64,000 nucleotides of DNA, taken from contig JAGLGM010000003.1 of assembly GCA_023144035.1 (NCBI GenBank), positions 15,876-79,875 on the forward strand, in the 5' to 3' direction. The notes under the pieces are model-generated. The model ran no database searches, had not been told where the DNA came from, and saw nothing but the letters and a program-made list of their open reading frames with translations. The position numbers and the translations under genes are program-made. Shown here in pieces: positions 6,136-29,413 of this stretch (positions are counted from its first letter, which is position 1; every line of letters begins with the position of its first letter). The DNA comes from Candidatus Pacearchaeota archaeon (lineage in GTDB: Archaea; Nanobdellota; Nanobdellia; Pacearchaeales; GW2011-AR1).

Positions 6136-6495
6136 ATGGCAAATGAAACTAAGGCAATTAAAAATATAAAAGTAACAAAAAGGGAATGGAATAATGTTGG
6201 AAACCTTATTGATTTCTTAAAATTTAGATATAAAAAGGAAGATGATTTTGTTAAATGGTTAATAGGAATCGCTTTAGTATTTTTATTTTCTTCTAGTGTG
6301 ACAAATGTTCTAGAGAGTCAAACAGATTGGATTAGAACCACTGGAGTTGTTATTTTTATTGCTTCTATAGTATTTATTGTTCTATTACTTATTATTCAAC
6401 ATTATATTGATAAAGCTCAAATAGAAGTTATGAAATATCTCTACAAACAAAAAGATAAAAAGAAAAAGGTAAAAGGAAAAACTAAGAAGAAATAG
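6136..6495 (+). CDS. Small membrane protein with Lys-rich tail
   Basis: Two hydrophobic helices, KKKKVKGKTKKK tail. Confidence 0.4.
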   Translation: MANETKAIKNIKVTKREWNNVGNLIDFLKFRYKKEDDFVKWLIGIALVFLFSSSVTNVLESQTDWIRTTGVVIFIASIVFIVLLLIIQHYIDKAQIEVMKYLYKQKDKKKKVKGKTKKK

Positions 6496-6709
6496 AAAAT
6501 TAATGACCTATTGGGCCCCTGAATATTTCTTTAAACATTAATATCAAAAAAGTTAATAATATTGCCGAAAAAATTATCTCAAACCATTTTCTCTTTATAA
6601 ATTTTAAAAACTTATTCATAAAGATTCTACGAATTTATTATATTTAAATATGGGCGTTTCTAAAAAGAAAAGTATAAAATTGTTGGATTCTTAATTATCT
6701 TGATTAAAA

Positions 6710-7726
6710 ATGCCTAGTTTTGAAGAAATATTTGGATTAGCAACATATTTGAAAGAAATAGAAAATTTAAAAATTAATTTAAGAGTTAATTTTAATGGAG
6801 TATTATTAACTGCTTTGTATTTTAAAAATAAGTCTGAAGAAAAAGAAAGAAAAGATAAATTTTTTAATAGAAATAAAGAGATAATTGAAGAAATAAATAA
6901 AGAGATAAATAAATTTAATTTAAAATTAAAGGAAAAATACAAGTTTTTGCCTCTAAAGTCTCTTGAAATAATTAATCTTGAATATATTAAAAAAATAATT
7001 TATGAACATCAAGGAAAAGATTCAACTTCAAGAAAATACACTCTTCTCCAACTAAATAATTGTTTATTAGATTTTGAAAATTCGATTAAGAATTTTCTTG
7101 ACTCCTTTGAAATCCAATTGATACCATTTAAAGGGAGAGACGTTACAGATTTTCTTAATGAAGAAAATGGAATAATGGTAAAAGAAGCTTTTGATATTTA
7201 TAGTATTGGATATTTCGGAACTGCTGTTTTCTTAATGGGAAAATGTCTTGAAAAAAACATCACAGATTTTCTTAAAAAGAATGTTAATAAAAATAAAATA
7301 AAATATCCTTTAAATGAAATTGAGAAATGTACTTTCCATCAAAAAATAAACATCTTAAAAAATGAAACTTTTATTTCTGAATCAGATTATTCTAAGATTA
7401 TGTCTATCAAATGGGAGAGAAATATTGCAGTTCATCCTTCTAAAAAAGAAGAAATAGAAAAATTGATGGCAGATTCTAGTGGGACAATAACTCTCTGTAT
7501 TAATCAGATTATTAATTTCCAAAAGAAAATAGAAGAAGTGAAAAGTGAGGCTGAAATCCAAGAAGAAAAAGCAAGAGAATTGCTTGGGGGAACGTCGGGA
7601 GGAGGAATTCCAATATTATATGGAAAAACTCCAGAAGAAAATTTAGAATTGCTTAAAAGCTATGGTGGGAAAAGAATAGAAGAAATGAGGGAAAAATTAA
7701 GAAAAGAAATTGAAGAAACAAAATAA
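6710..7726 (+). CDS. Hypothetical protein with HEPN-like Rx4H motif (possible RNase / abortive-infection-type)
   Basis: KWERNIAVHP (R-x4-H) in the C-terminal half; coiled-coil-rich; adjacent to integrase. Confidence 0.4.
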   Translation: MPSFEEIFGLATYLKEIENLKINLRVNFNGVLLTALYFKNKSEEKERKDKFFNRNKEIIEEINKEINKFNLKLKEKYKFLPLKSLEIINLEYIKKIIYEHQGKDSTSRKYTLLQLNNCLLDFENSIKNFLDSFEIQLIPFKGRDVTDFLNEENGIMVKEAFDIYSIGYFGTAVFLMGKCLEKNITDFLKKNVNKNKIKYPLNEIEKCTFHQKINILKNETFISESDYSKIMSIKWERNIAVHPSKKEEIEKLMADSSGTITLCINQIINFQKKIEEVKSEAEIQEEKARELLGGTSGGGIPILYGKTPEENLELLKSYGGKRIEEMREKLRKEIEETK

Positions 7727-16236: not shown

Positions 16237-16430
16237 AAATCACAAATAAAACAAAAATAAACAAATTGCTTGAAAAAAATCCTGAAGCAGCTGAAATTTT
16301 ATTTGAAGCTGGTATGGGTTGTGTGGGTTGTTCTATGGCTATGCATGAAACAATTGAACAAGGTTGTTTAGCACATGGAATGACAAAAAAACAAATTGAA
16401 AAATTAATTAAGGAGTTAAATAAGAAATGA
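16233..16430 (+). CDS. DUF1858-type redox disulfide small protein
   Basis: GMGCVGCSMAMHETIEQGCLAHG. Confidence 0.5.
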   Translation: MKITNKTKINKLLEKNPEAAEILFEAGMGCVGCSMAMHETIEQGCLAHGMTKKQIEKLIKELNKK

Positions 16431-18004
16431 TGAAATATTCTAAAAAAGTTATGTGTGAATTTCTCAAACCTAAAAACATGGGAGAAATAAAAAATCCAGA
16501 TGGAGTTGGAAAAATTGGAAATCCTACTTGTTTACTTCCAGATGAAAAAATTTGGTTAAATGAAAGTTTTGAAGCAATTAAAAAAACAAATAAAGGAGAT
16601 ATGGTTTTATCACATGATTCTACTGAAAATAAGATTTTAGGAAAATTTTCTAGAGAATATAAAGGAGAAATAATCAGACTAAAAAATGCGCTTGGGAATA
16701 TTTTTCTTACTCCAGAACATCTTGTTTTTGCAATGCGTATTCCAAAAGGAGATAAATTTAAAAGAAATAAAGGTAAAAAACAATTGATTCCTTCATGGTA
16801 TCATGCTGAATATTTGAAAAAAGGGGACATAATATTATATCCTTTTTCAAGAAAAGAAAAAAATATTAAATATTTGACAATAGATATCCCAAAACCCAAA
16901 TATGATTTTAGGAGCAAAAATATTCCAAGTAAAATCTCTCTTAACATGGATCTTTTGAGGCTTTTTGGTTACTTTCTCTCGGAAGGAAATATTCAAGATA
17001 AACCATCTAAAACATATATTTCTTTTGCGTTGCATATTAAGGAGAAAGAAATTGTCGAAGACATAAGAAAGATTGTTAAAAGATTATTTGATTTAGAAAT
17101 AAAATCCAAAGAAAGAATAAAGGAAAATGGGGTCGTTGTTTATATTTACCATGCTCAATTAGCAAGATGGTTTAAAAAATTATTTGGAAATGGTACTCAA
17201 AATAAATATTTACCTGAATTTATAATGCAATTACCCATATCAAAACAAAAAGCATTGATAAAAGGTTTGTGGAAAGGAGATGGATGCATCAATGTGAATC
17301 GTATTGGACCAAGAGCAGGCTATGTTACAATTTCATATAGATTATCTCAACAAATAAAAATCCTTTTACTAAGGCAAAAAATAATCTCTTCATTTTATAT
17401 TGAAAAAGAAAAAAAATCCAAATGGGCTAATCATAAAGAAGCTTATAGAATTCATGTGGGACAAAGAGATTCTCTAAAAAAATTATGTAAAATTTTAAAT
17501 TTAAAACATTGCTCAAAATCTTATGAGTCTATTAGTTCTTGGATTAACAATAATTTTTTATATACCCCTATAACTAAAATAGAAAGAAAAAATTATAAAG
17601 GAAAAGTATATAATTTAGAAGTTGAAAAGACCCATTCATTTATTTCAGAAAGTTTTTGTCTTCATAATTGTGGCGATGTTATGTGGGTTTATATTAAAGT
17701 TAAAAATGATAAAATTACAAAAATCAAATTTAAAACATTTGGATGTGCTGCTGCAATTGCAACATCTTCTATGGTTACTCAACTTGCTAAAGGAAAAACA
17801 ACTAAAGATGCTAAAAAAATTAAAATAAAAGATGTGGCATCTTCTTTAAAAGGATTACCTCCTCTAAAAATGCATTGTAGTGAACTTGCAACAGATGCTT
17901 TAAAATTAGCAATTAAAGATTATGAAAAAAAGAAAACTAATAAAAAGAAAAATGAAAATAGAACAAAAAGTAAAACAAACTTTGAAAAAGATAAAGTTAA
18001 ATAA
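16427..18004 (+). CDS. iscU: Fe-S cluster scaffold IscU/NifU-N, interrupted by an intein; Lys-rich C-terminal tail overlaps the next gene
   Basis: N-extein YSKKVMCEFLKPKNMGEIKNPDGVGKIGNPT; C-extein CGDVMWVYIKVKNDKITKIKFKTFGCAAAIATSSM…LPPLKMHCSELATDALKLAIKDY. Confidence 0.8.
   Translation: MMKYSKKVMCEFLKPKNMGEIKNPDGVGKIGNPTCLLPDEKIWLNESFEAIKKTNKGDMVLSHDSTENKILGKFSREYKGEIIRLKNALGNIFLTPEHLVFAMRIPKGDKFKRNKGKKQLIPSWYHAEYLKKGDIILYPFSRKEKNIKYLTIDIPKPKYDFRSKNIPSKISLNMDLLRLFGYFLSEGNIQDKPSKTYISFALHIKEKEIVEDIRKIVKRLFDLEIKSKERIKENGVVVYIYHAQLARWFKKLFGNGTQNKYLPEFIMQLPISKQKALIKGLWKGDGCINVNRIGPRAGYVTISYRLSQQIKILLLRQKIISSFYIEKEKKSKWANHKEAYRIHVGQRDSLKKLCKILNLKHCSKSYESISSWINNNFLYTPITKIERKNYKGKVYNLEVEKTHSFISESFCLHNCGDVMWVYIKVKNDKITKIKFKTFGCAAAIATSSMVTQLAKGKTTKDAKKIKIKDVASSLKGLPPLKMHCSELATDALKLAIKDYEKKKTNKKKNENRTKSKTNFEKDKVK
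16529..17668 (+). other. Intein (380 aa) with LAGLIDADG homing-endonuclease domain, inserted in IscU between GNPT and CGD
   Basis: Starts CLLPDEKIWLN (block A), LTPEHLVFA (block B TxxH), LFGYFLSEGNI and LIKGLWKGDGC (LAGLIDADG blocks). Ends …VYNLEVEKTHSFISESFCLHN followed by extein Cys. Confidence 0.75.
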
Positions 18005-20186: not shown

Positions 20187-20326
20187 TTTTACCTCCTAAT
20201 TATCTCAAAGATAGTTTAATTTAAAAAATTATCTTGTTGGGCAAGAGAGTGGTTACTAACCTTTAAATACTATTTGGCTTTAATAATATTCCACTATACA
20301 AGTTATAGTAATAAAAAGAATGTGAT

Positions 20327-20342
20327 ATACAATATATTGTAT
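20327..20342. promoter_or_regulatory. NrdR-box-like perfect 16-bp palindrome atacaatatattgtat upstream of nrdR-nrdJ, nested in an outer inverted repeat ctatacaag/cttgtatag (20294-20358)
   Basis: Perfect palindrome about 50 nt upstream of nrdR ATG; resembles the bacterial NrdR box consensus acaC-AtATaT-Gtgt. Confidence 0.5.
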
Positions 20343-20391: not shown

Positions 20392-20829
20392 ATGGATTGT
20401 CCATATTGTTCACACATAAATTCAAAAGTAACAGATAAAAGAAAATCTCCACAAGGGGTAAGAAGAAGGAGAGAATGTCTCAAATGTAAAAAGAGGTTTA
20501 CTACATATGAGAAAACAGAAAAAGGAGACCTCTATGTAATAAAAAAACAAGGACAAAGAGAAAAATTTAATAGAGATAAATTAGAATCTGGAATTGAAAG
20601 AGCATTTGAAAAAAGACCTGTTTCAAGAGATAAAGTTCAAAAGATGATTAATGAAATAGAAGAACAAATAAGAAAAAGAGGTAAAAAAGAAATAAAGAGT
20701 TCAATTATAGGTGATTTAGTATCTAAAAAGATAAAAAGACTAGATAAGGTTGCTTATATTAGGTTTGCTTCAGTCTATAGAGACTTTGAAGATATTAAAG
20801 ATTTTAAAAAGGAGTTAAAAGAATTATAA
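20392..20829 (+). CDS. nrdR: Transcriptional repressor NrdR (zinc ribbon plus ATP-cone)
   Basis: MDCPYCSHINSKVTDKRKSPQGVRRRRECLKCKKRFTTYE. Confidence 0.85.
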   Translation: MDCPYCSHINSKVTDKRKSPQGVRRRRECLKCKKRFTTYEKTEKGDLYVIKKQGQREKFNRDKLESGIERAFEKRPVSRDKVQKMINEIEEQIRKRGKKEIKSSIIGDLVSKKIKRLDKVAYIRFASVYRDFEDIKDFKKELKEL

Positions 20830-20831
20830 AA

Positions 20832-23800
20832 ATGATTGAAAAAATAAGTGGTTTAGAAAATAAAACATTTACTCCTGAATATTCTGTTATAAAATTCACA
20901 GACAATCCTTTAAAATATTCTCCAAGAGAATTAAAATCATATGATGAAGATAGGCATATAAAAATTGATGATGCTTATAGTCTTGTTGATTCTCAAAAAA
21001 TAGATAGTTTAAGTTCTGAAAAATTAAGAGAAGCTGTAAATTCCGGAGACATAAGAATTTATGATTTTAAAGAAGAAAAATGTTTAGATAGATTAGATTT
21101 AGGAAAAGTTTACAATAATCCAATTAAAGAAAAACAAGGACTTGAAATTAATAGATATTTTACTCAAGAAGGTGAAAACCCTTTTGATTCAGTTGAATTT
21201 AAAAAAAGAGATTTTCAAATAGTAGATAAAGATACAAAAAAAATTATTTTCGAGATGAAAAATACAGAGTTTCCAGAATGGATAGATGAAACTTCAGCCA
21301 CCATTGTTGCAAATAAATATTTTTTTAATCCAGATAAAAAAGAATGGAAACAAAAAATAAAAAATAAGCTTGGAAGAGATCATGAATATTCTCTTAAACA
21401 TCTTAATAGTAGAGTTACTGATTTTATTACAGGAGAAGGTTGGAAATTAGGTTATTTTAAATCAGAAAAAGATAGAGAAATATTTAGAGACGAACTTAAC
21501 TTCATACAAATTAATGGAATAGGTTCTTTTAATTCCCCAGTACAATTTAATGCAGGATTATTTAATTCATATGGTATTCAAGGAAGTTCTGGAATAAATT
21601 ATTGGAATGATCCTGAAACAGGAGAGGTGAAAAAAGTTGTTAATGGAGAATATATACACCCTCAATTACATGCTTGTTTTATTAAAGGACCAAATGATGA
21701 TTTAGAAAGTATTTTACAACATGGAATTGATGAAGGAGCTATTTTTGCTTCTGGTTCTGGAATAGGTCAAGACATTGGAGTTTTAAGAGAAGGAGGAGGA
21801 ACTCTTTCAGGAGGAGGAAAAGCTTCTGGTCCAAAAAGTTTTACTATTTGGTATGATAAAGGAGCAGGAACAATTAAATCAGGAGGTAAAACAAGAAGAG
21901 CTGCTAGAATGACAATTATGAGGCAAGATCATCCAGATATTCAAGAATTTGTTGGAATGAAAATTGCTGAAGATAAAAAAGCTTTAACCTTAATACAAAA
22001 TGGATATGAGAATGGAATGGATGGTGAAGCTTATACAACTGTTTCCCTTCAAAATACTAATTTTTCAGTTAGATTAGATGATTATTTCTTTAAAACTCTT
22101 GATCAAGGAGGAAAAATTGAATTAAGAGGAATAAAAGATAAAAAAGTAAAGGGGAAAGTTTCTGCTGATTCTCTTTTAAAAGAAATTTCTTTTGGAAGTT
22201 GGAGAATTGGAGATCCAGCAGTTCAATATGATAGTCAAATTCAAAAAATGCATACTTCTAAAAATTCAGGGAAAATAAAATCAAGTAATCCTTGTGGAGA
22301 ATTTATGAATATTGATAATACTTCTTGTAATCTTTATGCTAATAGGTTAACAGCATTTATAGATGAAAATGGAAATTTTGATGTTGAAAAATATAAATAT
22401 TCTGTAAGAATTGCTGCAATTGCTCAAGATATTGCTAATAAAGCAGCTTCTTATCCTGTTAAAGATATAGCGTCTATAAGTCCAGAATTTAGTTCAATTG
22501 GTCAAGGATTTGCTGATTTAGGTTCTTTATTAATGAGAAAAGGATTAGCTTATGATTCTGACGAAGCAAGATCATTAACTGCAGCTATTTCTGCTTTAAT
22601 GACTGGTACTGTTTATGAGACTTCAATTGAAATGGCTGAAAAATTAGGAACTTTTGAACATTATGAATTTAATCAACAACCTATGCTAAATGTAATGAAA
22701 AAACATAAAAAAAATCTTAAAGATGTTGATTGGGAAAAAATGGAAGATCCTAATTTGAAAAGAGCAGCTTATAAATCTTGGAACAATATCCTTAAAGAAG
22801 GAAAAGAACATGGTTTTAGAAATTCTCAAACAACTGTTTTAGCTCCAACTGGAACAACCTCTTTTTTAATGGGCTGTAGCACCACAGGTATTGAACCTGC
22901 ATTTTCTTTGAGTACTACAAAAAATCTTGCTGGAGGAGGCCATGTAACAATTACAAATAAAGATGTTAAATTTTCATTAAATAATTTAGGATATTCTGAA
23001 GAAAACATAAAAGATATTTCAAAATTTGTTGAAAAATATAATACTTTAATTGATGCACCTCATTTAAATCCAGAACATTATCCTATATTTGACACTGCTA
23101 TAGGGAATAATGGAAAAGGAAGTATTAGTTTAGAAGGACATATGAAAATGATGGGAGCTGCACAACCTTTTATTTCTGGAGCTATTTCAAAAACAAATAA
23201 CCTTCCAAAAGAATCAACTGTTAAAGATATTTATGATGGCTATCTTTTAGGAGATGAACTTGATTTAAAAGGAGTTACAATCTTTAGGAGTAGTAGTAAA
23301 CCTGTTGCTGCATATGGAGATTCTGAAGTAGGTGTTAAATTAAAAAGAGGAGAAAAAGAAGAATTACCTTTTAGTGGAGATAGTTTTAGACAAGAAATTA
23401 AAATAAATCAAGCTCCTTTTTTAATAAACATTGGAGAATATGAAGATGGAAGACCAGGAGAAATTGTTATTAATTCATATACTTCTGATTCAACATTAGG
23501 AGCTGTTTTAAGAACAGCAGGAATTTCTGCATCTAGTGCCCTTAAGAGAGGGTCTGATCTAGAAGATGTTTTTAAAGGATGGATAGGCCATGGTTTTGAA
23601 CCTCGTGGTCTTGTAAAAATTGAAAATTCAAAAGGAGTAATAAAACCCCACCCTTATATAAAAGAAGCTTCTTCTCCATTAGATTTTGCAGGAAGATTAG
23701 CCCTTTTACATTATAAAGGTGAAAAAGATTTTGCAACAGAACCAGATCAAGTTAATTTAGGTGATTTAAGAGGTGCAAAGAATGGGGCATTTAAAACATA

Positions 23801-24029
23801 TCAAAGAATGGAAGTAGATGAATGGAATATTGATGATGTTTTAAAAGATGCTGAAACAGGAGGTTTTGTTAATGAGAGTGAGTTTTCAAATGGAAATAAA
23901 AAGAAAAAAAATGGGAATAATAAAGGACTTCTTTGCACTACCGGTTGTGGAGGATTAATGGTTCAAACAGGACCTAATTGCTTCCAATGTAATAGTTGTG
24001 GAGAAAAACGTGGAGGATGTGGAGGATAG
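20832..24029 (+). CDS. nrdJ: Ribonucleotide reductase, class II (B12-dependent, NrdJ-type) with C-terminal Cys-rich tail
   Basis: NPCGEF active site; C-terminal CTTGCGGLMVQTGPNCFQCNSCGEKRGGCGG; 3 nt downstream of nrdR (operon). Confidence 0.8.
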   Translation: MIEKISGLENKTFTPEYSVIKFTDNPLKYSPRELKSYDEDRHIKIDDAYSLVDSQKIDSLSSEKLREAVNSGDIRIYDFKEEKCLDRLDLGKVYNNPIKEKQGLEINRYFTQEGENPFDSVEFKKRDFQIVDKDTKKIIFEMKNTEFPEWIDETSATIVANKYFFNPDKKEWKQKIKNKLGRDHEYSLKHLNSRVTDFITGEGWKLGYFKSEKDREIFRDELNFIQINGIGSFNSPVQFNAGLFNSYGIQGSSGINYWNDPETGEVKKVVNGEYIHPQLHACFIKGPNDDLESILQHGIDEGAIFASGSGIGQDIGVLREGGGTLSGGGKASGPKSFTIWYDKGAGTIKSGGKTRRAARMTIMRQDHPDIQEFVGMKIAEDKKALTLIQNGYENGMDGEAYTTVSLQNTNFSVRLDDYFFKTLDQGGKIELRGIKDKKVKGKVSADSLLKEISFGSWRIGDPAVQYDSQIQKMHTSKNSGKIKSSNPCGEFMNIDNTSCNLYANRLTAFIDENGNFDVEKYKYSVRIAAIAQDIANKAASYPVKDIASISPEFSSIGQGFADLGSLLMRKGLAYDSDEARSLTAAISALMTGTVYETSIEMAEKLGTFEHYEFNQQPMLNVMKKHKKNLKDVDWEKMEDPNLKRAAYKSWNNILKEGKEHGFRNSQTTVLAPTGTTSFLMGCSTTGIEPAFSLSTTKNLAGGGHVTITNKDVKFSLNNLGYSEENIKDISKFVEKYNTLIDAPHLNPEHYPIFDTAIGNNGKGSISLEGHMKMMGAAQPFISGAISKTNNLPKESTVKDIYDGYLLGDELDLKGVTIFRSSSKPVAAYGDSEVGVKLKRGEKEELPFSGDSFRQEIKINQAPFLINIGEYEDGRPGEIVINSYTSDSTLGAVLRTAGISASSALKRGSDLEDVFKGWIGHGFEPRGLVKIENSKGVIKPHPYIKEASSPLDFAGRLALLHYKGEKDFATEPDQVNLGDLRGAKNGAFKTYQRMEVDEWNIDDVLKDAETGGFVNESEFSNGNKKKKNGNNKGLLCTTGCGGLMVQTGPNCFQCNSCGEKRGGCGG

Positions 24030-24107: not shown

Positions 24108-24614
24108 ATGAAAAAAAGAAAGATTCCTAATTGGGATGATTATTTTATGTCAATGGTTTATCTTGTTGCATCAAAAAGTAAAGATGAAAGAACTCATATT
24201 GGAGCAATTATTGTAGGTGAAAATAAAGAAGTTGTTTCTTTAGGTTACAATAGTTTTCCTAGAGGGCTTAATGATAATATTTCTAAAAGGCAAGAAAAAC
24301 CAGAAAAAGATTATTGGTTTGAACATGCTGAAAGAAATGCTATTTACAATGCAACTTTAATTGGAACTTCTTTAAATGGATGTAAAATGTATACAAATGG
24401 TATTCCTTGCATGGATTGTGCAAGAGGTATTGTTCAATCGGGAATTCTTGAAGTTATTGTAGATAAAAAATGGAATGAAAGTAATACAGGAGATGATTTA
24501 GAACATTCAAAAAGAACAATTCAAATGTTTAAAGAAACAGGTGTTAAATTAAGATATTGGAAAGGAAAACTTTTGAAGATTGAAAAGTTTCGAGGAAAAA
24601 AGGCCTTGAAATAA
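24108..24614 (+). CDS. dCMP deaminase (ComEB-type)
   Basis: HAERNAI and PCMDCARGI zinc-binding motifs. Confidence 0.8.
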   Translation: MKKRKIPNWDDYFMSMVYLVASKSKDERTHIGAIIVGENKEVVSLGYNSFPRGLNDNISKRQEKPEKDYWFEHAERNAIYNATLIGTSLNGCKMYTNGIPCMDCARGIVQSGILEVIVDKKWNESNTGDDLEHSKRTIQMFKETGVKLRYWKGKLLKIEKFRGKKALK

Positions 24615-24686: not shown

Positions 24687-25262
24687 ATGCCAATTTCAGC
24701 TTTAAAATTATTAGAATTAAATGAAAAATATAATTTAATTGAAAATCTTTCTGAAAGAGAATTATTAAATCCAGAAGGTGTTGGAACAGATCTTAGAGTT
24801 GGTGAAGTTTACAAAATAATAGAGCCAGGATTCTTAGGAATTGACGAAAGACACACTCCAGCAATTAAAAAAGTAGCAGATATAAATGAAGGAGATAAAA
24901 AAGTAGTTTTAAATCCTGGAGCATATGTTTTAGTTAAAACAATGGAAAGACTTAATGTTCCAGCTGAAAAAATCTCTCTTGAAACATGGAAAGCGTCTAG
25001 ATATCTTATGCCTGTTGTTTATCCTAGGAGCACTTTACAAAGATGTGGAATTGCTTTATTTAGAACAAAAACAGACCCAGGATATTCAGGAGAATTAACT
25101 TTTGGTTTAACAAATTTAGGAAACCAGAAATTCACATTTGAATTAGGTGCTAGAATGTTTAATGTTGTGTTTGAACCTGTAATAGGTGATATAAACAGAG
25201 CTTATAGTGGACAACACAATCAAGGCAGAGTTAGTGGCGGAGTAACTGAATTTCAGAATTGA
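24687..25262 (+). CDS. dCTP deaminase / dUTPase-family protein
   Basis: DPGYSGELTFGLTNLGNQKFTFELGARMFNVVF resembles the dCTP deaminase C-terminal motif. Confidence 0.55.
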   Translation: MPISALKLLELNEKYNLIENLSERELLNPEGVGTDLRVGEVYKIIEPGFLGIDERHTPAIKKVADINEGDKKVVLNPGAYVLVKTMERLNVPAEKISLETWKASRYLMPVVYPRSTLQRCGIALFRTKTDPGYSGELTFGLTNLGNQKFTFELGARMFNVVFEPVIGDINRAYSGQHNQGRVSGGVTEFQN

Positions 25263-25335: not shown

Positions 25336-27033
25336 ATGAATAAGATGACAATAAAACACGGTGATCAAACCTATATGACTGATAATGATCTTACAATAAA
25401 GATTATGGGTCTTTGGCCAAGTTTTAATATATCTAATCCTGAGTTAAAAAAAGAATTTGAAAAGAAATTTGGAAGAGGATTTTTAGGAGGAGATGATTTG
25501 GTTTCTTATGCACAACCTCTTGTTTCGAGTGGAATGGATTTTGAAAAATTAGAAGAAACAATCTTTGGAGACATGTATAATGAAGAAGGAAAAAATTTTG
25601 AAGATATTTTATTTAATAAAACTGCAACAGGAATTGGAAGAGGACATTCTTTAGGAGGGTTATCTGGAGTTGTTCTAGGAGTTCATGGAACAAAAATGAT
25701 TGATTCTGGATTAACAGGATTATGTTCTTCAAGATCTTTAGTTACAAGTAGCAGAAGAAGGGAAACTGGAACAGCAGATATTGCAATCCCAGAAAGCTTA
25801 CAAAAACATCCAAAATTACTCAAAAAATATATGCAAATTTCTGAGGAAGTTTTCAACTTAGGAAAAGAATTTAAAGAAAAATTTGGAAAAATGGGAGGAG
25901 TTGAAACTTTCAATAAAGTTATTCCTTATAATAATCCTGCTGATTTATTTATTGTTTTACCCTTAGATACAATGGCTACCATTACTGCAGAAGTTAGAGA
26001 AGATGCTTTGAATCCAAATGGAACTTTTCTTCCTAGAGAAATACATGCATTATCTGCAATGTTTCCAGAAATAACAAAAGAAATTGGTCAAAGTACTATG
26101 TATAAACAAAGAATTGAAGTTCCAAGAGATAATTATATGCATTATAATGTTTTCAAAGACCCTGGTTTTCCGAACCATGCACTTGAACTTGGAACGGAAT
26201 TAGGTTTGGAAAATATTGATCCTCTTGTTGTAAATACTTTTTTTGACAACACTAAAGGATTTCGTGTTGCTGCAAATTATGCTTTAGAAGCAATTAAACA
26301 AGCACAAAAAAGTGATAATCCAAAAGAACTTCATGAAAAATCATTAGAAGCAATGTATGCTTTGAGAAAATTTGCTAATGAATACAATGAATCAGTAAGA
26401 ATTCAAATAGGAGACACTTTGTCTTGGAGAGTCTGGTCTGAACAAAAAAGACATTCAACCTTAAGACAAACTGTTGAATCTGTTTATTCTGGAGCTGAAA
26501 GAGCTTTAAAAGGAATTACTCCTCTTTGGCCAACTATTGAAGTAGCATATAATGAAAACGATTTTGAAAAATTAAATGGGGTATTGAGTGAATTAGAAAA
26601 AAATATTATTATTGATAATAGGCTAAAAAGAAAACCTGAAGTTATAATTCCTTATGCTTATCACACTGCAAAACAATTAATGCTTTATCAAGAATTTTTA
26701 GATGCAGGTATTCCTGCAAGGGATGCTTTATTTGCTGTTCCAAAAAATATTAGATTAAGAACTTCTGAGAATTATGATTTAACTAATTTAATTGATTTAG
26801 AATTTCCTTTAAGACTTTGTAATACTTGTGAACCTGAAAGAAAAGCTAGTTCTTGGAAAAAAAGAGAAATTATCGTTGAAGAACTTCCTGATTTAGAGCC
26901 TTTCTTAAAATCAAAATGTAATGTTGGTTTTTGTACTGAAGGAAAATATTGTAATCAAATTACAGATATGAGAGAGTATGATGAAGGATTACATAAGGCA
27001 ACTAAACAATATATGTTAGATAAAGCTAAATAA
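25336..27033 (+). CDS. Hypothetical 565-aa protein inside the dNTP-metabolism block; C-terminal Cys cluster
   Basis: ORF track; CNTCEPERK…CNVGFCTEGKYCNQ. Confidence 0.45.
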   Translation: MNKMTIKHGDQTYMTDNDLTIKIMGLWPSFNISNPELKKEFEKKFGRGFLGGDDLVSYAQPLVSSGMDFEKLEETIFGDMYNEEGKNFEDILFNKTATGIGRGHSLGGLSGVVLGVHGTKMIDSGLTGLCSSRSLVTSSRRRETGTADIAIPESLQKHPKLLKKYMQISEEVFNLGKEFKEKFGKMGGVETFNKVIPYNNPADLFIVLPLDTMATITAEVREDALNPNGTFLPREIHALSAMFPEITKEIGQSTMYKQRIEVPRDNYMHYNVFKDPGFPNHALELGTELGLENIDPLVVNTFFDNTKGFRVAANYALEAIKQAQKSDNPKELHEKSLEAMYALRKFANEYNESVRIQIGDTLSWRVWSEQKRHSTLRQTVESVYSGAERALKGITPLWPTIEVAYNENDFEKLNGVLSELEKNIIIDNRLKRKPEVIIPYAYHTAKQLMLYQEFLDAGIPARDALFAVPKNIRLRTSENYDLTNLIDLEFPLRLCNTCEPERKASSWKKREIIVEELPDLEPFLKSKCNVGFCTEGKYCNQITDMREYDEGLHKATKQYMLDKAK

Positions 27034-27058: not shown

Positions 27059-27994
27059 TTATAGCAACCTCACCAACCATTTCTTATCTAAATATTTTTT
27101 TGTTATAGTTTCTTTCAAATTTATTCCTGCACTCATATCAATTGAAGAAGGCATTAACAGATTTTTCTTATAATCTGGAGGAGAGATAGTTAGTTGCATT
27201 CCTTTTGCCCAATAAAATTTTCTAAATAAAAAACCTTCTGAATCTTTTGAGGTTGGATCTTCTTCAAGAATGTAAGATATTTCATCTTTTTCAAATAATT
27301 CTTTAAAACTAAATCCTATATTATTTAAAGATTTTAAAATAGATTTTTTAATAATTTTATTTACCTCTTCTTTGTTCTTATTTGAAAAAAGAGTAATTAA
27401 ATCAATATCTAAATAAGATTTTCCCATTATTTCTTTTGCTAAAAGTGGTTTCGGGCTTCCCCTTTTACAAGCAGATCCTGTTAAATAAATTTCATTACAC
27501 ATTGATTTAATTTGGTTGACAAATTCAAGAATGAACTTTTGATCTATCTCTGTTAAATATCCCTTAAAATACTTGTCAAAGCGTTTACTATCTGAAATTA
27601 AAGGAATTTCGTTAAAAGAAGTGTATGCATTTATTATATTACTAAGATTTAATGAATATGTTTTTTTTGAATCATCAAAAAAATAAAAAACTGCTTTAAA
27701 ATCTTCTTGAGAATGGGGTTGCAAAATTTTTGAACAATTTTCACAAGGAATAGCTCTTTTTACATTCTCTGGTTTTCCATTTGCCATAAGATGTATTTCT
27801 TTTATCTTAAAATCTTCTTTATCTTTTCTAGCTTTACTAACTGCTATATCTTCGGCATGCAAAATCCTCTCTTCTTTTTCAACATTATATCCTTCATATA
27901 ATTTATTTTCTTTTGTTATTAAGATACATCCAACTTTTCTACTTGTTAATGGAGCTTGTGCTTTTTTTATAAGTTTTATTAGTTGCTCGTGCAT
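27059..27994 (-). CDS. Fusion protein: N-terminal cytidine/deoxycytidylate-deaminase-fold domain plus C-terminal minimal nucleotidyltransferase (Pol-beta superfamily) domain
   Basis: HAEDIAV … PCENCSKIL (CDA zinc motifs); LTGSACKRGS…SYLDIDLI (GS-x-DxD NTase motif). Confidence 0.55.
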   Translation of the reverse strand: MHEQLIKLIKKAQAPLTSRKVGCILITKENKLYEGYNVEKEERILHAEDIAVSKARKDKEDFKIKEIHLMANGKPENVKRAIPCENCSKILQPHSQEDFKAVFYFFDDSKKTYSLNLSNIINAYTSFNEIPLISDSKRFDKYFKGYLTEIDQKFILEFVNQIKSMCNEIYLTGSACKRGSPKPLLAKEIMGKSYLDIDLITLFSNKNKEEVNKIIKKSILKSLNNIGFSFKELFEKDEISYILEEDPTSKDSEGFLFRKFYWAKGMQLTISPPDYKKNLLMPSSIDMSAGINLKETITKKYLDKKWLVRLL

Positions 27995-28099
27995 ATATGA
28001 TTGAGCTAAATTTTCTTTTTAAACAATTATGTTTTCAGAAACATATATTCATCTTTTCAAATAAAAACTTTTATAAATCACCTTATTCTACAGAAAACT

Positions 28100-28417
28100 A
28101 TGGAACATGTAAAAGAATTGACAAATGGTATGTTTGATGACTTTATTAAAGAGGGATTAGTATTAATCGACTTTTTTGCTGATTGGTGTATGCCTTGTTT
28201 AATGATGGTTCCAATATTAGAAGAAGTAGGAGAAAAACTTGGTGAAAAAGTTAAGATAGGTAAAGTTGATGTTGGAGAAAATCAAGATATTGCTAGCAAG
28301 TTTGGAGTTAGTTCTATTCCTAATTTTGTATTATTTAAAGATGGTGAAGTAATTGAACAATTTACAGGTTCAATATCTGCAGAAGAACTTGAAGAGAAAC
28401 TAAATAAACATCTCTAA
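28100..28417 (+). CDS. Thioredoxin
   Basis: WCMPC active site in a thioredoxin-fold-length protein. Confidence 0.75.
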   Translation: MEHVKELTNGMFDDFIKEGLVLIDFFADWCMPCLMMVPILEEVGEKLGEKVKIGKVDVGENQDIASKFGVSSIPNFVLFKDGEVIEQFTGSISAEELEEKLNKHL

Positions 28418-28427
28418 GTTAATTCTA

Positions 28428-29003
28428 TTAAAATACTTCTTTAAACACTTCGTTCATATATTTAATAGCCCAGTTTCTTAAAAATAATGCTCCTGGAAGA
28501 GAATCTATATTGTGGGAAGAATATGTAAAATATTTTGAATGTCCTTCAATTAGTGCTTTAAATTCTTCTGTTTTTTCTTCTGTGAATTTTATATAGGAGT
28601 TAGGAACAAGTGTTTCGCAATTGTAATCCTCTTTATTAAAATATAAACTTCCCCCTCCATCTCTGCTTATTGAAAATCCACTTACAAATCCATTTTCTTG
28701 AACCATAATATTATCTTCCCAACCTCTAAAAATTTGATATCCTGTCCTCTGAATTATTTTTGGCTTTTCTTTAAGAAATACTTCTTCAAACCATTCTTTT
28801 TTATCTTGATCTTTTTCTATTTTTACATATTCTTTTAGATCAGCATACCATTCTTCTGCTACTTGTGGGAAAATCTTTTTTGCAATTAAAGGATCTAAAT
28901 TTATACTTTCATCTAAAAGTTTTGAATGAATAGGTATTTGAAAACAAGATCCATATAAAATAGGCAATTCTTCTTTTTTTAGAAAGAGTTGTTCAAGTTT
29001 CAT
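28428..29003 (-). CDS. Hypothetical protein
   Basis: ORF track only. Confidence 0.4.
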   Translation of the reverse strand: MKLEQLFLKKEELPILYGSCFQIPIHSKLLDESINLDPLIAKKIFPQVAEEWYADLKEYVKIEKDQDKKEWFEEVFLKEKPKIIQRTGYQIFRGWEDNIMVQENGFVSGFSISRDGGGSLYFNKEDYNCETLVPNSYIKFTEEKTEEFKALIEGHSKYFTYSSHNIDSLPGALFLRNWAIKYMNEVFKEVF

Positions 29004-29171: not shown

Positions 29172-29264
29172 GGCTCCGTAGCTCAGCCTGGCAGAGCACT
29201 GGACTTTTAGTTGGTAAAACAAGAAGTTATCCAGGTGTCGAGGGTTCAAATCCCCCCGGGGCCA
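29172..29264 (+). tRNA. tRNA-Lys (anticodon TTT at 29206-29208) with 19-nt intron (about 29210/11 to 29228/29)
   Basis: Acceptor ggctccg/cggggcc, discriminator A, D-arm gctc-agcctggca-gagc, anticodon stem ctgga/tccag, loop cTTTTag, T-arm gaggg-ttcaaat-ccccc (one A-C mismatch). Intron aagaagt pairs with actttt. Confidence 0.7.
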
Positions 29265-29319
29265 TTTTTCTAAACAAAAATCTATTAAAGGAATTTTCAC
29301 CCCAAGGGGTTTCCCAATA

Positions 29320-29391
29320 GGATGACTCTGGTGAGCCTTCCACAAAGGATGACTCTGGTGAGCCTTCCTCACAGGATGACTCTGGTGAGCC
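29320..29391. repeat. 27-nt tandem repeat, 2.7 copies (ggatgactctggtgagccttcc-caca-)
   Basis: ggat starts at 29320, 29347, 29374; copies differ only in the last about 6 nt. Confidence 0.7.
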
Positions 29392-29413
29392 TCAAATCCC
29401 CCCGGGGCCATTT
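29392..29413. repeat. 22-bp exact duplicate of the tRNA-Lys 3' end (tcaaatccccccggggccattt), att-like scar
   Basis: Identical to 29246-29267. Confidence 0.7.

Follow-up and report, generated by a model that had tools for sequence, protein, structure and literature searches.

A 64,000-nt stretch of contig JAGLGM010000003.1 from Candidatus Pacearchaeota archaeon (hereafter called the window) was found to encode a protein of 311 amino acids (aa) in which a cytidine deaminase (CDA)-like domain is joined to a domain resembling the nucleotidyltransferases (NTases) of the DNA polymerase beta (Pol-beta) superfamily. The evidence tips slightly towards an interpretation of this fusion gene as coding for an enzyme with two domains that takes part in the metabolism of pyrimidine (deoxy)nucleosides or nucleotides. 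The product is a compact, conserved two-domain protein with the catalytic residues intact in both halves, and its gene recurs in operons for thymidylate and deoxynucleoside triphosphate (dNTP) synthesis. The pairing of the two domains is described neither in Pfam, NCBIfam, PADLOC or PHROGs nor in the searched literature on organisms of the candidate phyla radiation (CPR) and DPANN or on deaminase classifications, and the first-pass annotation of the window had likewise known no family of this kind.

The gene and its motifs are arranged as follows (all on the minus strand):

27059-27994: whole open reading frame (ORF) of the CDA-like and NTase-like fusion, 311 aa plus stop, from the ORF list, ATG start
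27620-27994: N-terminal zinc deaminase domain of the CDA clade, aa 1-125
27878-27886: N37-V38-E39, aligned with N-x-E of the B. subtilis CDA (phmmer alignment to 1ux1/1jtk)
27851-27859: H46-A47-E48, zinc ligand and catalytic glutamate, read in the raw DNA
27734-27748: P83-C84-E85-N86-C87, two cysteine zinc ligands, read in the raw DNA
27062-27619: C-terminal NTase-like domain of the Pol-beta superfamily, aa 126-311
27455-27484: LTGSACKRGS (aa 171-180), hG[GS] motif for the NTP phosphates after a predicted strand, read in the raw DNA
27395-27418: SYLDIDLI (aa 193-200), D-h-D-h metal-binding motif on a predicted strand, read in the raw DNA
27125-27148: SSIDMSAG (aa 283-290), with D286 as candidate third carboxylate on the predicted strand 284-290

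The ORF is thus identical in coordinates, strand and start to the one quoted in the first-pass annotation, and the motifs cited there (HAE, PCENC, LTGSACKRGS and SYLDIDLI) were all present in the raw DNA. The CDA fold with zinc ligands that had been proposed for the N-terminal part was recovered in the Pfam match, the PDB alignment, the NCBIfam models and the predicted structure.

PF00383 matched residues 3-92 of the fusion protein with 44.1 bits (E=2.1e-11) at a cut-off of 25, a score far above chance level, by which the N-terminal half is assigned to the deaminases. The same model was reached at E<=1 by 24 of the 25 members of a family alignment, on which all conservation counts out of 25 are based. 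The top NCBIfam models for the fusion protein were cytidine deaminases as well, all far under their equivalog cut-offs. In the alignment N37, E39, A47, E48, P83, C84 and C87 were invariant, and H46 was found in 24 sequences. The residue after the second Cys of the PCxxC motif was variable and never an Arg, and the following position was a Lys in 13 sequences. In a phmmer comparison with the PDB, the domain matched the CDA of B. subtilis and related tetrameric enzymes. GYNVEKE of the fusion protein was paired with GCNIENA (1ux1/1jtk), by which N37 and E39 correspond to N42 and E44 of the B. subtilis CDA. In known CDA structures this N-x-E pair binds the ribose 3'-OH, and a Phe of the B. subtilis enzyme stacks on the base.

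The CDD/CDA clade is marked by a PCxxCR zinc motif in helix 3 and by [CH]AE in helix 2, and a beta4-beta5 hairpin without helix 4 defines the division of CDD, CDA and blasticidin-S deaminase (Iyer et al., 2011; PMC3239186). The AlphaFold model of the fusion protein has a confidence score (pLDDT) of 76 and a pTM of 0.74, and most of its N-terminal blocks score 80-95. In this model, a turn of two residues connects the predicted antiparallel strands 95-105 and 108-116 into a hairpin (pLDDT 85-91). By its sequence and the predicted hairpin, the N-terminal half belongs to the CDA-fold zinc deaminases of the CDD/CDA clade and has a complete predicted catalytic set (His/Cys/Cys plus Glu). It is classified as a catalytically competent, derived member of this clade and not as an orthologue of the housekeeping Cdd. 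Since the N-x-E pair that binds the 3'-OH is invariant, an internal cytosine of a nucleic acid is disfavored as substrate. The substrate would be a free (deoxy)riboside or a 5'-nucleotide, at most a 3'-terminal residue.

For the C-terminal domain, the predicted order of elements was helix 149-162, strand 168-172, helix 182-190, strand 196-202, helix 208-225, strand 255-262 and strand 284-290, with a predicted alpha-beta-alpha-beta-alpha-beta core of the NTase type. In the model G173-S174 follows the first strand, D196 and D198 lie on the second, and D286 lies on a later strand. This placement of conserved residues in the model matches the positions of the NTP-phosphate loop and of the metal carboxylates in NTases. 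T172 was found in 23, G173 in 24, S or T at position 174 in 24 and R178 in 17 of the 25 sequences. Y194, D196 and D198 were each present in 24; the exception is P0020, with G and N at the Asp positions. D286 was conserved in 24 sequences and replaced by Glu in the remaining one, and is a candidate third carboxylate by its position on the predicted strand. L147, D151, Y194 and Y301 are invariants specific to the family. Motifs as short as these could be due to chance in a single sequence. Counting against chance, they are conserved in 24 of 25 relatives, whose identity to the window protein is no more than 22-62%.

A model of the C-terminal domain only was predicted separately (pLDDT 71). Structure comparison with this model returned LinB (6.4), a CCA-adding enzyme (6.3), TENT5C (6.0) and Pol beta (5.9). 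With Foldseek, the top 38 PDB matches of the same model were all of the NTase fold (TENT5C, NF90, TdT, Pol beta and mu, CdnD and OAS), with a best E-value of 1.8e-3, a match probability of up to 0.97 and a template modeling (TM) score of about 0.3. Taken over the two independent structure-comparison methods and the two separately predicted models, the matches were almost exclusively NTase-fold proteins. The C-terminal domain therefore very probably adopts the NTase fold, as far as predicted models can indicate. Because the Gly-Ser loop and the three acidic residues are conserved, binding of Mg-NTP and catalytic activity as an NTase are considered likely.

A different role for this domain would be that of an allosteric sensor of dCTP, dTTP or another NTP-Mg, or of a scaffold that completes the active site, with the deaminase as the sole catalyst. 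There are precedents, since dCMP deaminases are tuned by dCTP and dTTP and the dimeric CDA of E. coli has an inactive second domain. Inactive modules of the NTase fold (NF45/NF90, RsfS) usually lose their catalytic residues, whereas this family retains the G-S loop together with all three carboxylates in 24 of 25 sequences across very deep divergence, a pattern typical of active NTases. A non-catalytic module is therefore regarded as unlikely.

The family was found to be small. A word-indexed search of 5.8 billion proteins returned only 7 relatives. Among them were full-length homologues 57-61% identical to the window protein, and one of these, from a Candidatus Pacearchaeota metagenome-assembled genome (MAG), is the closest named homologue. 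An exhaustive HMMER search with the C-terminal profile alone against 1.84 billion representatives resulted in 28 clusters (50% identity), 24 of which contain proteins of about 283-339 aa with the C-terminal domain at a constant position. The other four were a 242-aa fragment that matches the window protein with 100% identity, two pieces of 141 aa and 72 aa, and one false positive, the repeat protein P0032 (580 aa), which was rejected as a family member. The 141-aa protein P0023 could represent either a C-terminal domain that exists on its own or a gene call that was cut short. Since 24 of the 28 clusters share both length and domain position, the C-terminal domain is concluded to occur essentially only in fusion with the deaminase. 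The family is rare, unstudied and confined to ultra-small archaea (Pacearchaeota) and bacteria (CPR). Its archaeal members are the window protein and P0002-P0006 from Pacearchaeota. It is commoner in bacteria, where the flanking genes are bacterial (RNase Y, HU, GreA, LGT, EF-P, RF-1 and sigma-70). Database names for the members are 'hypothetical protein' or 'cytidine deaminase' only.

One bacterial locus, L008 (CAZCYU010000092.1, from a MAG labelled Candidatus Peribacteria), carries in-frame TGA codons in the fusion gene and in ThyA where relatives have Gly. This indicates that the contig uses genetic code 25, in which TGA is a sense codon. Code 25 is unexpected for Candidatus Peribacteria, and the bin may be mis-binned or mis-classified. 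Trp was found at conserved Gly positions in two database members and is read as the mark of a TGA mistranslated as Trp.

The gene neighborhood was compared in 11 independent contexts of useful length, most of which were obtained by exact-protein look-ups. Pattern scans of genomes and metagenomes yielded only four loci, since few stretches are conserved enough to search with. In seven of the 11 contexts, genes for dNTP or folate metabolism or for nucleotide house-cleaning are located no more than three genes away. The kinds of genes counted were ThyA/ThyX, dihydrofolate reductase (DHFR), FolD, dUTPase-like, MazG, Maf and nucleoside deoxyribosyltransferase. The window and the loci with such neighbors are organized as follows, with the fusion gene placed in order where it is known:

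Window: ribonucleotide reductase, dCMP deaminase, dUTPase-like, ThyX-like, fusion gene, thioredoxin
L008: fusion gene convergent with DHFR-ThyA
L009 and L012: serine hydroxymethyltransferase (SHMT)-FolD and FolD-NUDIX
L013/L014: dCMP deaminase, NUDIX, ThyA, HD, DHFR, fusion gene and a dCTP deaminase (DCD)-like gene on one strand; further on NUDIX and a (d)CMP-kinase-like gene
L015: nucleoside 2-deoxyribosyltransferase
L016: MazG, DCD-like, fusion gene, with an 18-bp gap
L017: Maf, fusion gene

As no more than a few percent of the genes in a genome are of these kinds, a frequency of seven in 11 appears to be far above chance; a back-of-envelope estimate, made without a formal test, gives a probability of about 1e-4 or less. 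In the window the block consists of the following genes:

20392-20829, plus strand: NrdR gene (Pfam)
20832-24029, plus strand: class II ribonucleotide reductase (Pfam)
24108-24614, plus strand: dCMP deaminase (PF00383, E=2.4e-21)
24687-25262, plus strand: DCD/dUTPase-like gene (PF22769, E=5.6e-20)
25336-27033, plus strand: ThyX-like ORF of 565 aa, convergent with the fusion gene (weak match to PF02511, Thy1)
28100-28417, plus strand: thioredoxin, divergent from the fusion gene (PF00085, E=6.5e-27)

This agrees with the earlier placement of the fusion gene at the end of a dNTP block and next to thioredoxin. The match of the 565-aa ORF to PF02511 reached 21.3 bits, below the cut-off of 24.8, and was confined to the C-terminal 95 residues; NCBIfam gave nothing for this ORF. 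It stands at the thymidylate-synthase position of the block and may be a very divergent or extended ThyX.

The DCD-like protein of the window is 45-46% identical to its orthologues in the CPR loci L013 (6967-7515) and L016 (314-853), as determined by alignment with the window copy, and its gene adjoins the fusion gene in both CPR loci. Compared with solved dCTP deaminases, all three copies carry a Gly instead of the Glu of the 'TLE' motif (PGYSGxLTFG). Since this Glu is catalytic in dCTP deaminases, the neighbor is probably an enzyme of the dUTPase type. The fusion gene and the DCD-like gene may travel together between CPR and DPANN lineages.

In the proposed function, the deaminase domain would act on a free cytosine (deoxy)riboside, with or without 5'-phosphorylation, and yield the corresponding uracil compound, and cytosine in nucleic acids would not be a substrate. 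Owing to the recurrent dNTP/thymidylate gene context, the uracil product is suggested to feed the branch from dUMP to dTMP, or alternatively noncanonical cytosine compounds would be cleared from the pool, in these ultra-small organisms. Of the two functions named in the first-pass annotation, a modification of the nucleotide pool fits this context, and nucleic-acid editing found no support. The NTase-like domain is predicted to bind Mg-NTP and would most likely be catalytic. The most speculative step is that its target could be a sugar hydroxyl of the nucleoside or nucleotide handled by the deaminase. This is proposed by analogy with LinB and ANT(4'), the small-molecule NTases closest to it in structure, which nucleotidylylate sugar hydroxyls. 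The domain could alternatively present a nucleoside triphosphate, e.g., (d)CTP, to the deaminase site. In its furthest form the proposal describes a truly bifunctional enzyme, in which an ANT/Lnu-like domain would nucleotidylylate or otherwise activate the sugar hydroxyl of the pyrimidine (deoxy)nucleoside or nucleotide deaminated by the CDA domain. This would be an unprecedented pair of reactions in dUMP/dTMP supply or pool sanitation, specific to CPR bacteria and DPANN archaea, which live on scavenged nucleosides, and exchanged between domains of life together with the Glu-less DCD/dUTPase-like gene. As it stands, this extended form is unlikely.

Several observations weigh against the proposed function and have to be set beside the evidence above. 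For the deaminase domain, the equivalog scores were low, with 39.5 against a cut-off of 113.65 bits for TIGR01354, 26.5 against 74 for NF004064 and 21.1 against 275 for TIGR01355, and Arg19 was aligned by phmmer with the base-stacking Phe position of the B. subtilis CDA. For these two reasons the substrate may not be plain cytidine.

For the C-terminal domain, the points against concern its sequence. Residues 126-311 of the window protein had no match in Pfam or NCBIfam, and the C-terminal region gave nothing in PHROGs or PADLOC. Among the 25 members, Pfam returned no significant NTase match (PF01909, PF18765), with a single member reaching PF01909 at E=0.11. A C-terminal profile of 22 sequences had no match among all PDB sequences. 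In hhalign, comparison with a purpose-built profile of minimal nucleotidyltransferases (MNT; 21 sequences) resulted in a probability of 0.5% (E=0.11), and the aligned part comprised the D-x-D motif only, with Y-x-D-I-D-L-I of the family paired with S-D-I-D-I-L of MNT. The spacing from G-S to D-x-D is 21 residues (S174-D196), including the predicted helix 182-190, compared to the roughly 9-13 that typically separate G[GS] from [DE]h[DE] in NTases. As sequence and profile comparisons gave nothing significant, the NTase assignment rests on a model of moderate confidence and on the motifs. Of the Pol-beta type that had been proposed for this domain, the predicted fold and the conserved G-S, D-x-D and D residues hold, and the structure prediction suggested as a check did return the NTase fold; a match to any NTase at the sequence level is missing. 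The narrower term 'minimal nucleotidyltransferase' had to be abandoned in view of the non-significant PF01909 match, a domain size of about 190 aa, the 21-residue spacing and the lack of a conserved HEPN partner.

These results could also arise if the C-terminal region were an unrelated alpha/beta domain, its resemblance to the motifs coincidental and AlphaFold drawn to a common fold. Such an origin would agree with the lack of statistical sequence similarity to any NTase, the modest Z and TM scores, the two stretches of low model confidence (232-252 and 263-282) and the shallow input alignment. It does not explain that two structure-comparison methods applied to two models gave almost exclusively NTase-fold proteins, nor that the conserved residues are located on exactly those secondary-structure elements that carry them in NTases, and is quite improbable.

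The gene contexts provide further counterevidence. Four of the 11 (L001, L004, L019 and P0016), including the two closest archaeal lineages, have no dNTP, folate or house-cleaning genes within three genes of the fusion gene. A dCMP deaminase is already encoded in the window and in L013, which leaves no obvious need for another route to uracil nucleotides. In the CPR locus L019 the surroundings are RNA-flavored: the fusion gene is followed by CYTH and 2H/LigT-like phosphoesterase genes, with RlmN and RlmL nearby. This last context would fit an RNA enzyme that deaminates C at a free 3'-end of tRNA or other RNA and adds or repairs nucleotides there, combining editing and tailing. The structural matches include CCA-adding enzymes, poly(A) polymerases and TENT5/TUT enzymes, and the fusion protein is basic (pI 9.1), both of which would suit such an activity. 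The deaminase is, however, predicted to have the CDA hairpin and not the helix 4 that characterizes TadA/ADAT and APOBEC, Pfam found no RNA-binding domain (THUMP, S4 or CCCH), and seven of the 11 contexts indicate dNTP rather than RNA metabolism. An RNA enzyme is therefore distinctly improbable.

The modules resemble on the one hand blasticidin-S deaminase and on the other lincosamide and aminoglycoside nucleotidyltransferases, which raises the question of a detoxification of cytosine-type nucleoside antibiotics or analogues. The invariant N-x-E, which implies an ordinary (deoxy)ribose 3'-OH, the housekeeping dNTP genes in place of resistance genes or mobile elements as neighbors, and the lack of a copy in phage collections make this very unlikely.

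A role in anti-virus defense or as a toxin, by a nucleotide-depleting deaminase or an MNT-like antitoxin/toxin, would connect to known themes, as both deaminase-based dCTP depletion and MNT-HEPN pairs occur in defense and toxin-antitoxin systems. In L001, a HepT-MNT pair and a ParE/MazE pair are located 0.5-2 kb downstream of the homologue. Both pairs are complete in themselves and absent from all other loci. No HEPN gene or other protein partner was conserved across the window and the 10 other contexts, no PADLOC match was obtained at E<=1 for four diverse members, and no family copy was found in IMG/VR or GenBank phages. On these PADLOC, HEPN-partner and phage-collection negatives the defense or toxin reading was rejected as extremely unlikely. 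A conserved co-occurrence with HEPN partners, which the first-pass annotation had suggested looking for, was thus not observed.

De novo nucleotide synthesis is mostly absent from CPR bacteria and DPANN archaea, which rely on nucleotide salvage and whose proteomes are in large part without annotation. If the second domain of the proposed pyrimidine enzyme is catalytic, the family would bring a new reaction into pyrimidine metabolism and extend the Pol-beta NTase superfamily by a new branch directed at small molecules or nucleotides. If the domain is regulatory, it would represent a novel coupling of a CDA-type deaminase to nucleotide levels. The fusion protein is small and soluble-looking. It is a lineage-restricted enzyme and would be a new type of system only if the coupled chemistry is real. 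The wider impact is moderate, as it is neither a defense nor an editing system.

Apart from the fusion gene, a number of other features were observed in the window and in the related loci. The NrdR repressor gene is present in an apparently archaeal genome and is preceded by a perfect 16-bp palindrome similar to the NrdR box (ATACAATATATTGTAT, 20327-20342). A second palindrome is located about 30 bp upstream of the first (window 20291-20342 region). Control of the fusion gene by NrdR found no support, as no NrdR-box-like site with up to 3 mismatches was found in the intergenic region 27995-28099 shared with thioredoxin. At 16427-18004 (plus strand), a NifU/IscU-like scaffold protein is split by an intein carrying a LAGLIDADG homing-endonuclease domain; the domains identified in this ORF were NifU_N (aa 413-504), Intein_splicing and LAGLIDADG_3. 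Between thioredoxin and a tRNA gene, an ORF of 191 aa (28428-29003, minus strand) is without a Pfam or NCBIfam match. The tRNA itself has a length of 93 nt (29172-29264, plus strand; Rfam, 53.5 bits), and since ARAGORN assigns no anticodon to it, the presence of an intron is probable. Behind this gene lies a 27-bp unit in three tandem copies (29311-29392), overlapped by spurious ORFs with repeated peptides of the 'AHQSHP' type. Genes for RpoH and RpoB are located further along, at 29.5 kb of the window; together with the Pacearchaeota origin of the closest named homologue, they make a DPANN archaeon the most likely source of the window.

In L017, a CPR-like contig, the protein encoded at 6373-7335, about 3.5 kb from the homologue P0018, contains the 5-hydroxymethyl-dU DNA kinase helical domain (PF18723). 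Its gene is accompanied by Maf and NUDIX genes, which hints at modified-pyrimidine metabolism. In the Pacearchaeota loci L004 (8951-10281), L005 (8951-10505) and L006 (3727-5281), a region of 1.3-1.6 kb directly downstream of the homologue is without a called gene.

Compared to known systems, the fusion protein shares with the cytidine deaminases the N-x-E pair for the ribose 3'-OH. The homotetrameric Cdd enzymes (B. subtilis 1jtk/1ux1, B. pseudomallei 3dmo) have a Cys as first zinc ligand, an Arg after PCxxC and a base-stacking Phe, whereas the fusion protein has a His as first ligand, lacks this Arg and carries Arg19 at the Phe position. Furthermore, Cdd is not known to carry a C-terminal domain of 190 aa, which the fusion protein possesses, and the latter scores far under the TIGR01354 cut-off. 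The dimeric CDA of the E. coli type (1af2) and the plant CDA (6l08) also have a second domain, which is a degenerate CDA fold, in contrast to the predicted Pol-beta-type NTase fold with conserved acidic residues described here.

In the anti-phage dCTP deaminases and the bifunctional dCMP/dCTP deaminase of chloroviruses (7fh4), the deaminase is of the dCMP-deaminase (helix-4) type and not of the hairpin type. The partner module in these enzymes is a P-loop-like kinase domain, and neither NF041025 nor PADLOC matches the fusion protein. The nucleic-acid editing deaminases (TadA/ADAT, APOBEC/AID and CDAT8) are distinguished by the helix-4 topology and/or an RNA-binding domain, neither of which is present in the fusion protein.

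The NTases LinB/Lnu, ANT(4')/ANT(6)/ANT(9) and MNT (PF01909) have no significant sequence match to the fusion protein, which differs from them by an extra helix and the 21 residues from G-S to D-x-D. MNT of the HEPN-MNT pairs is a stand-alone protein of about 100-150 aa encoded beside HEPN, whereas the NTase-like domain described here has about 190 aa and no adjacent HEPN. The helical C-terminal substrate domain of ANT/Lnu is absent, and the NTase-like domain is fused to a deaminase instead.

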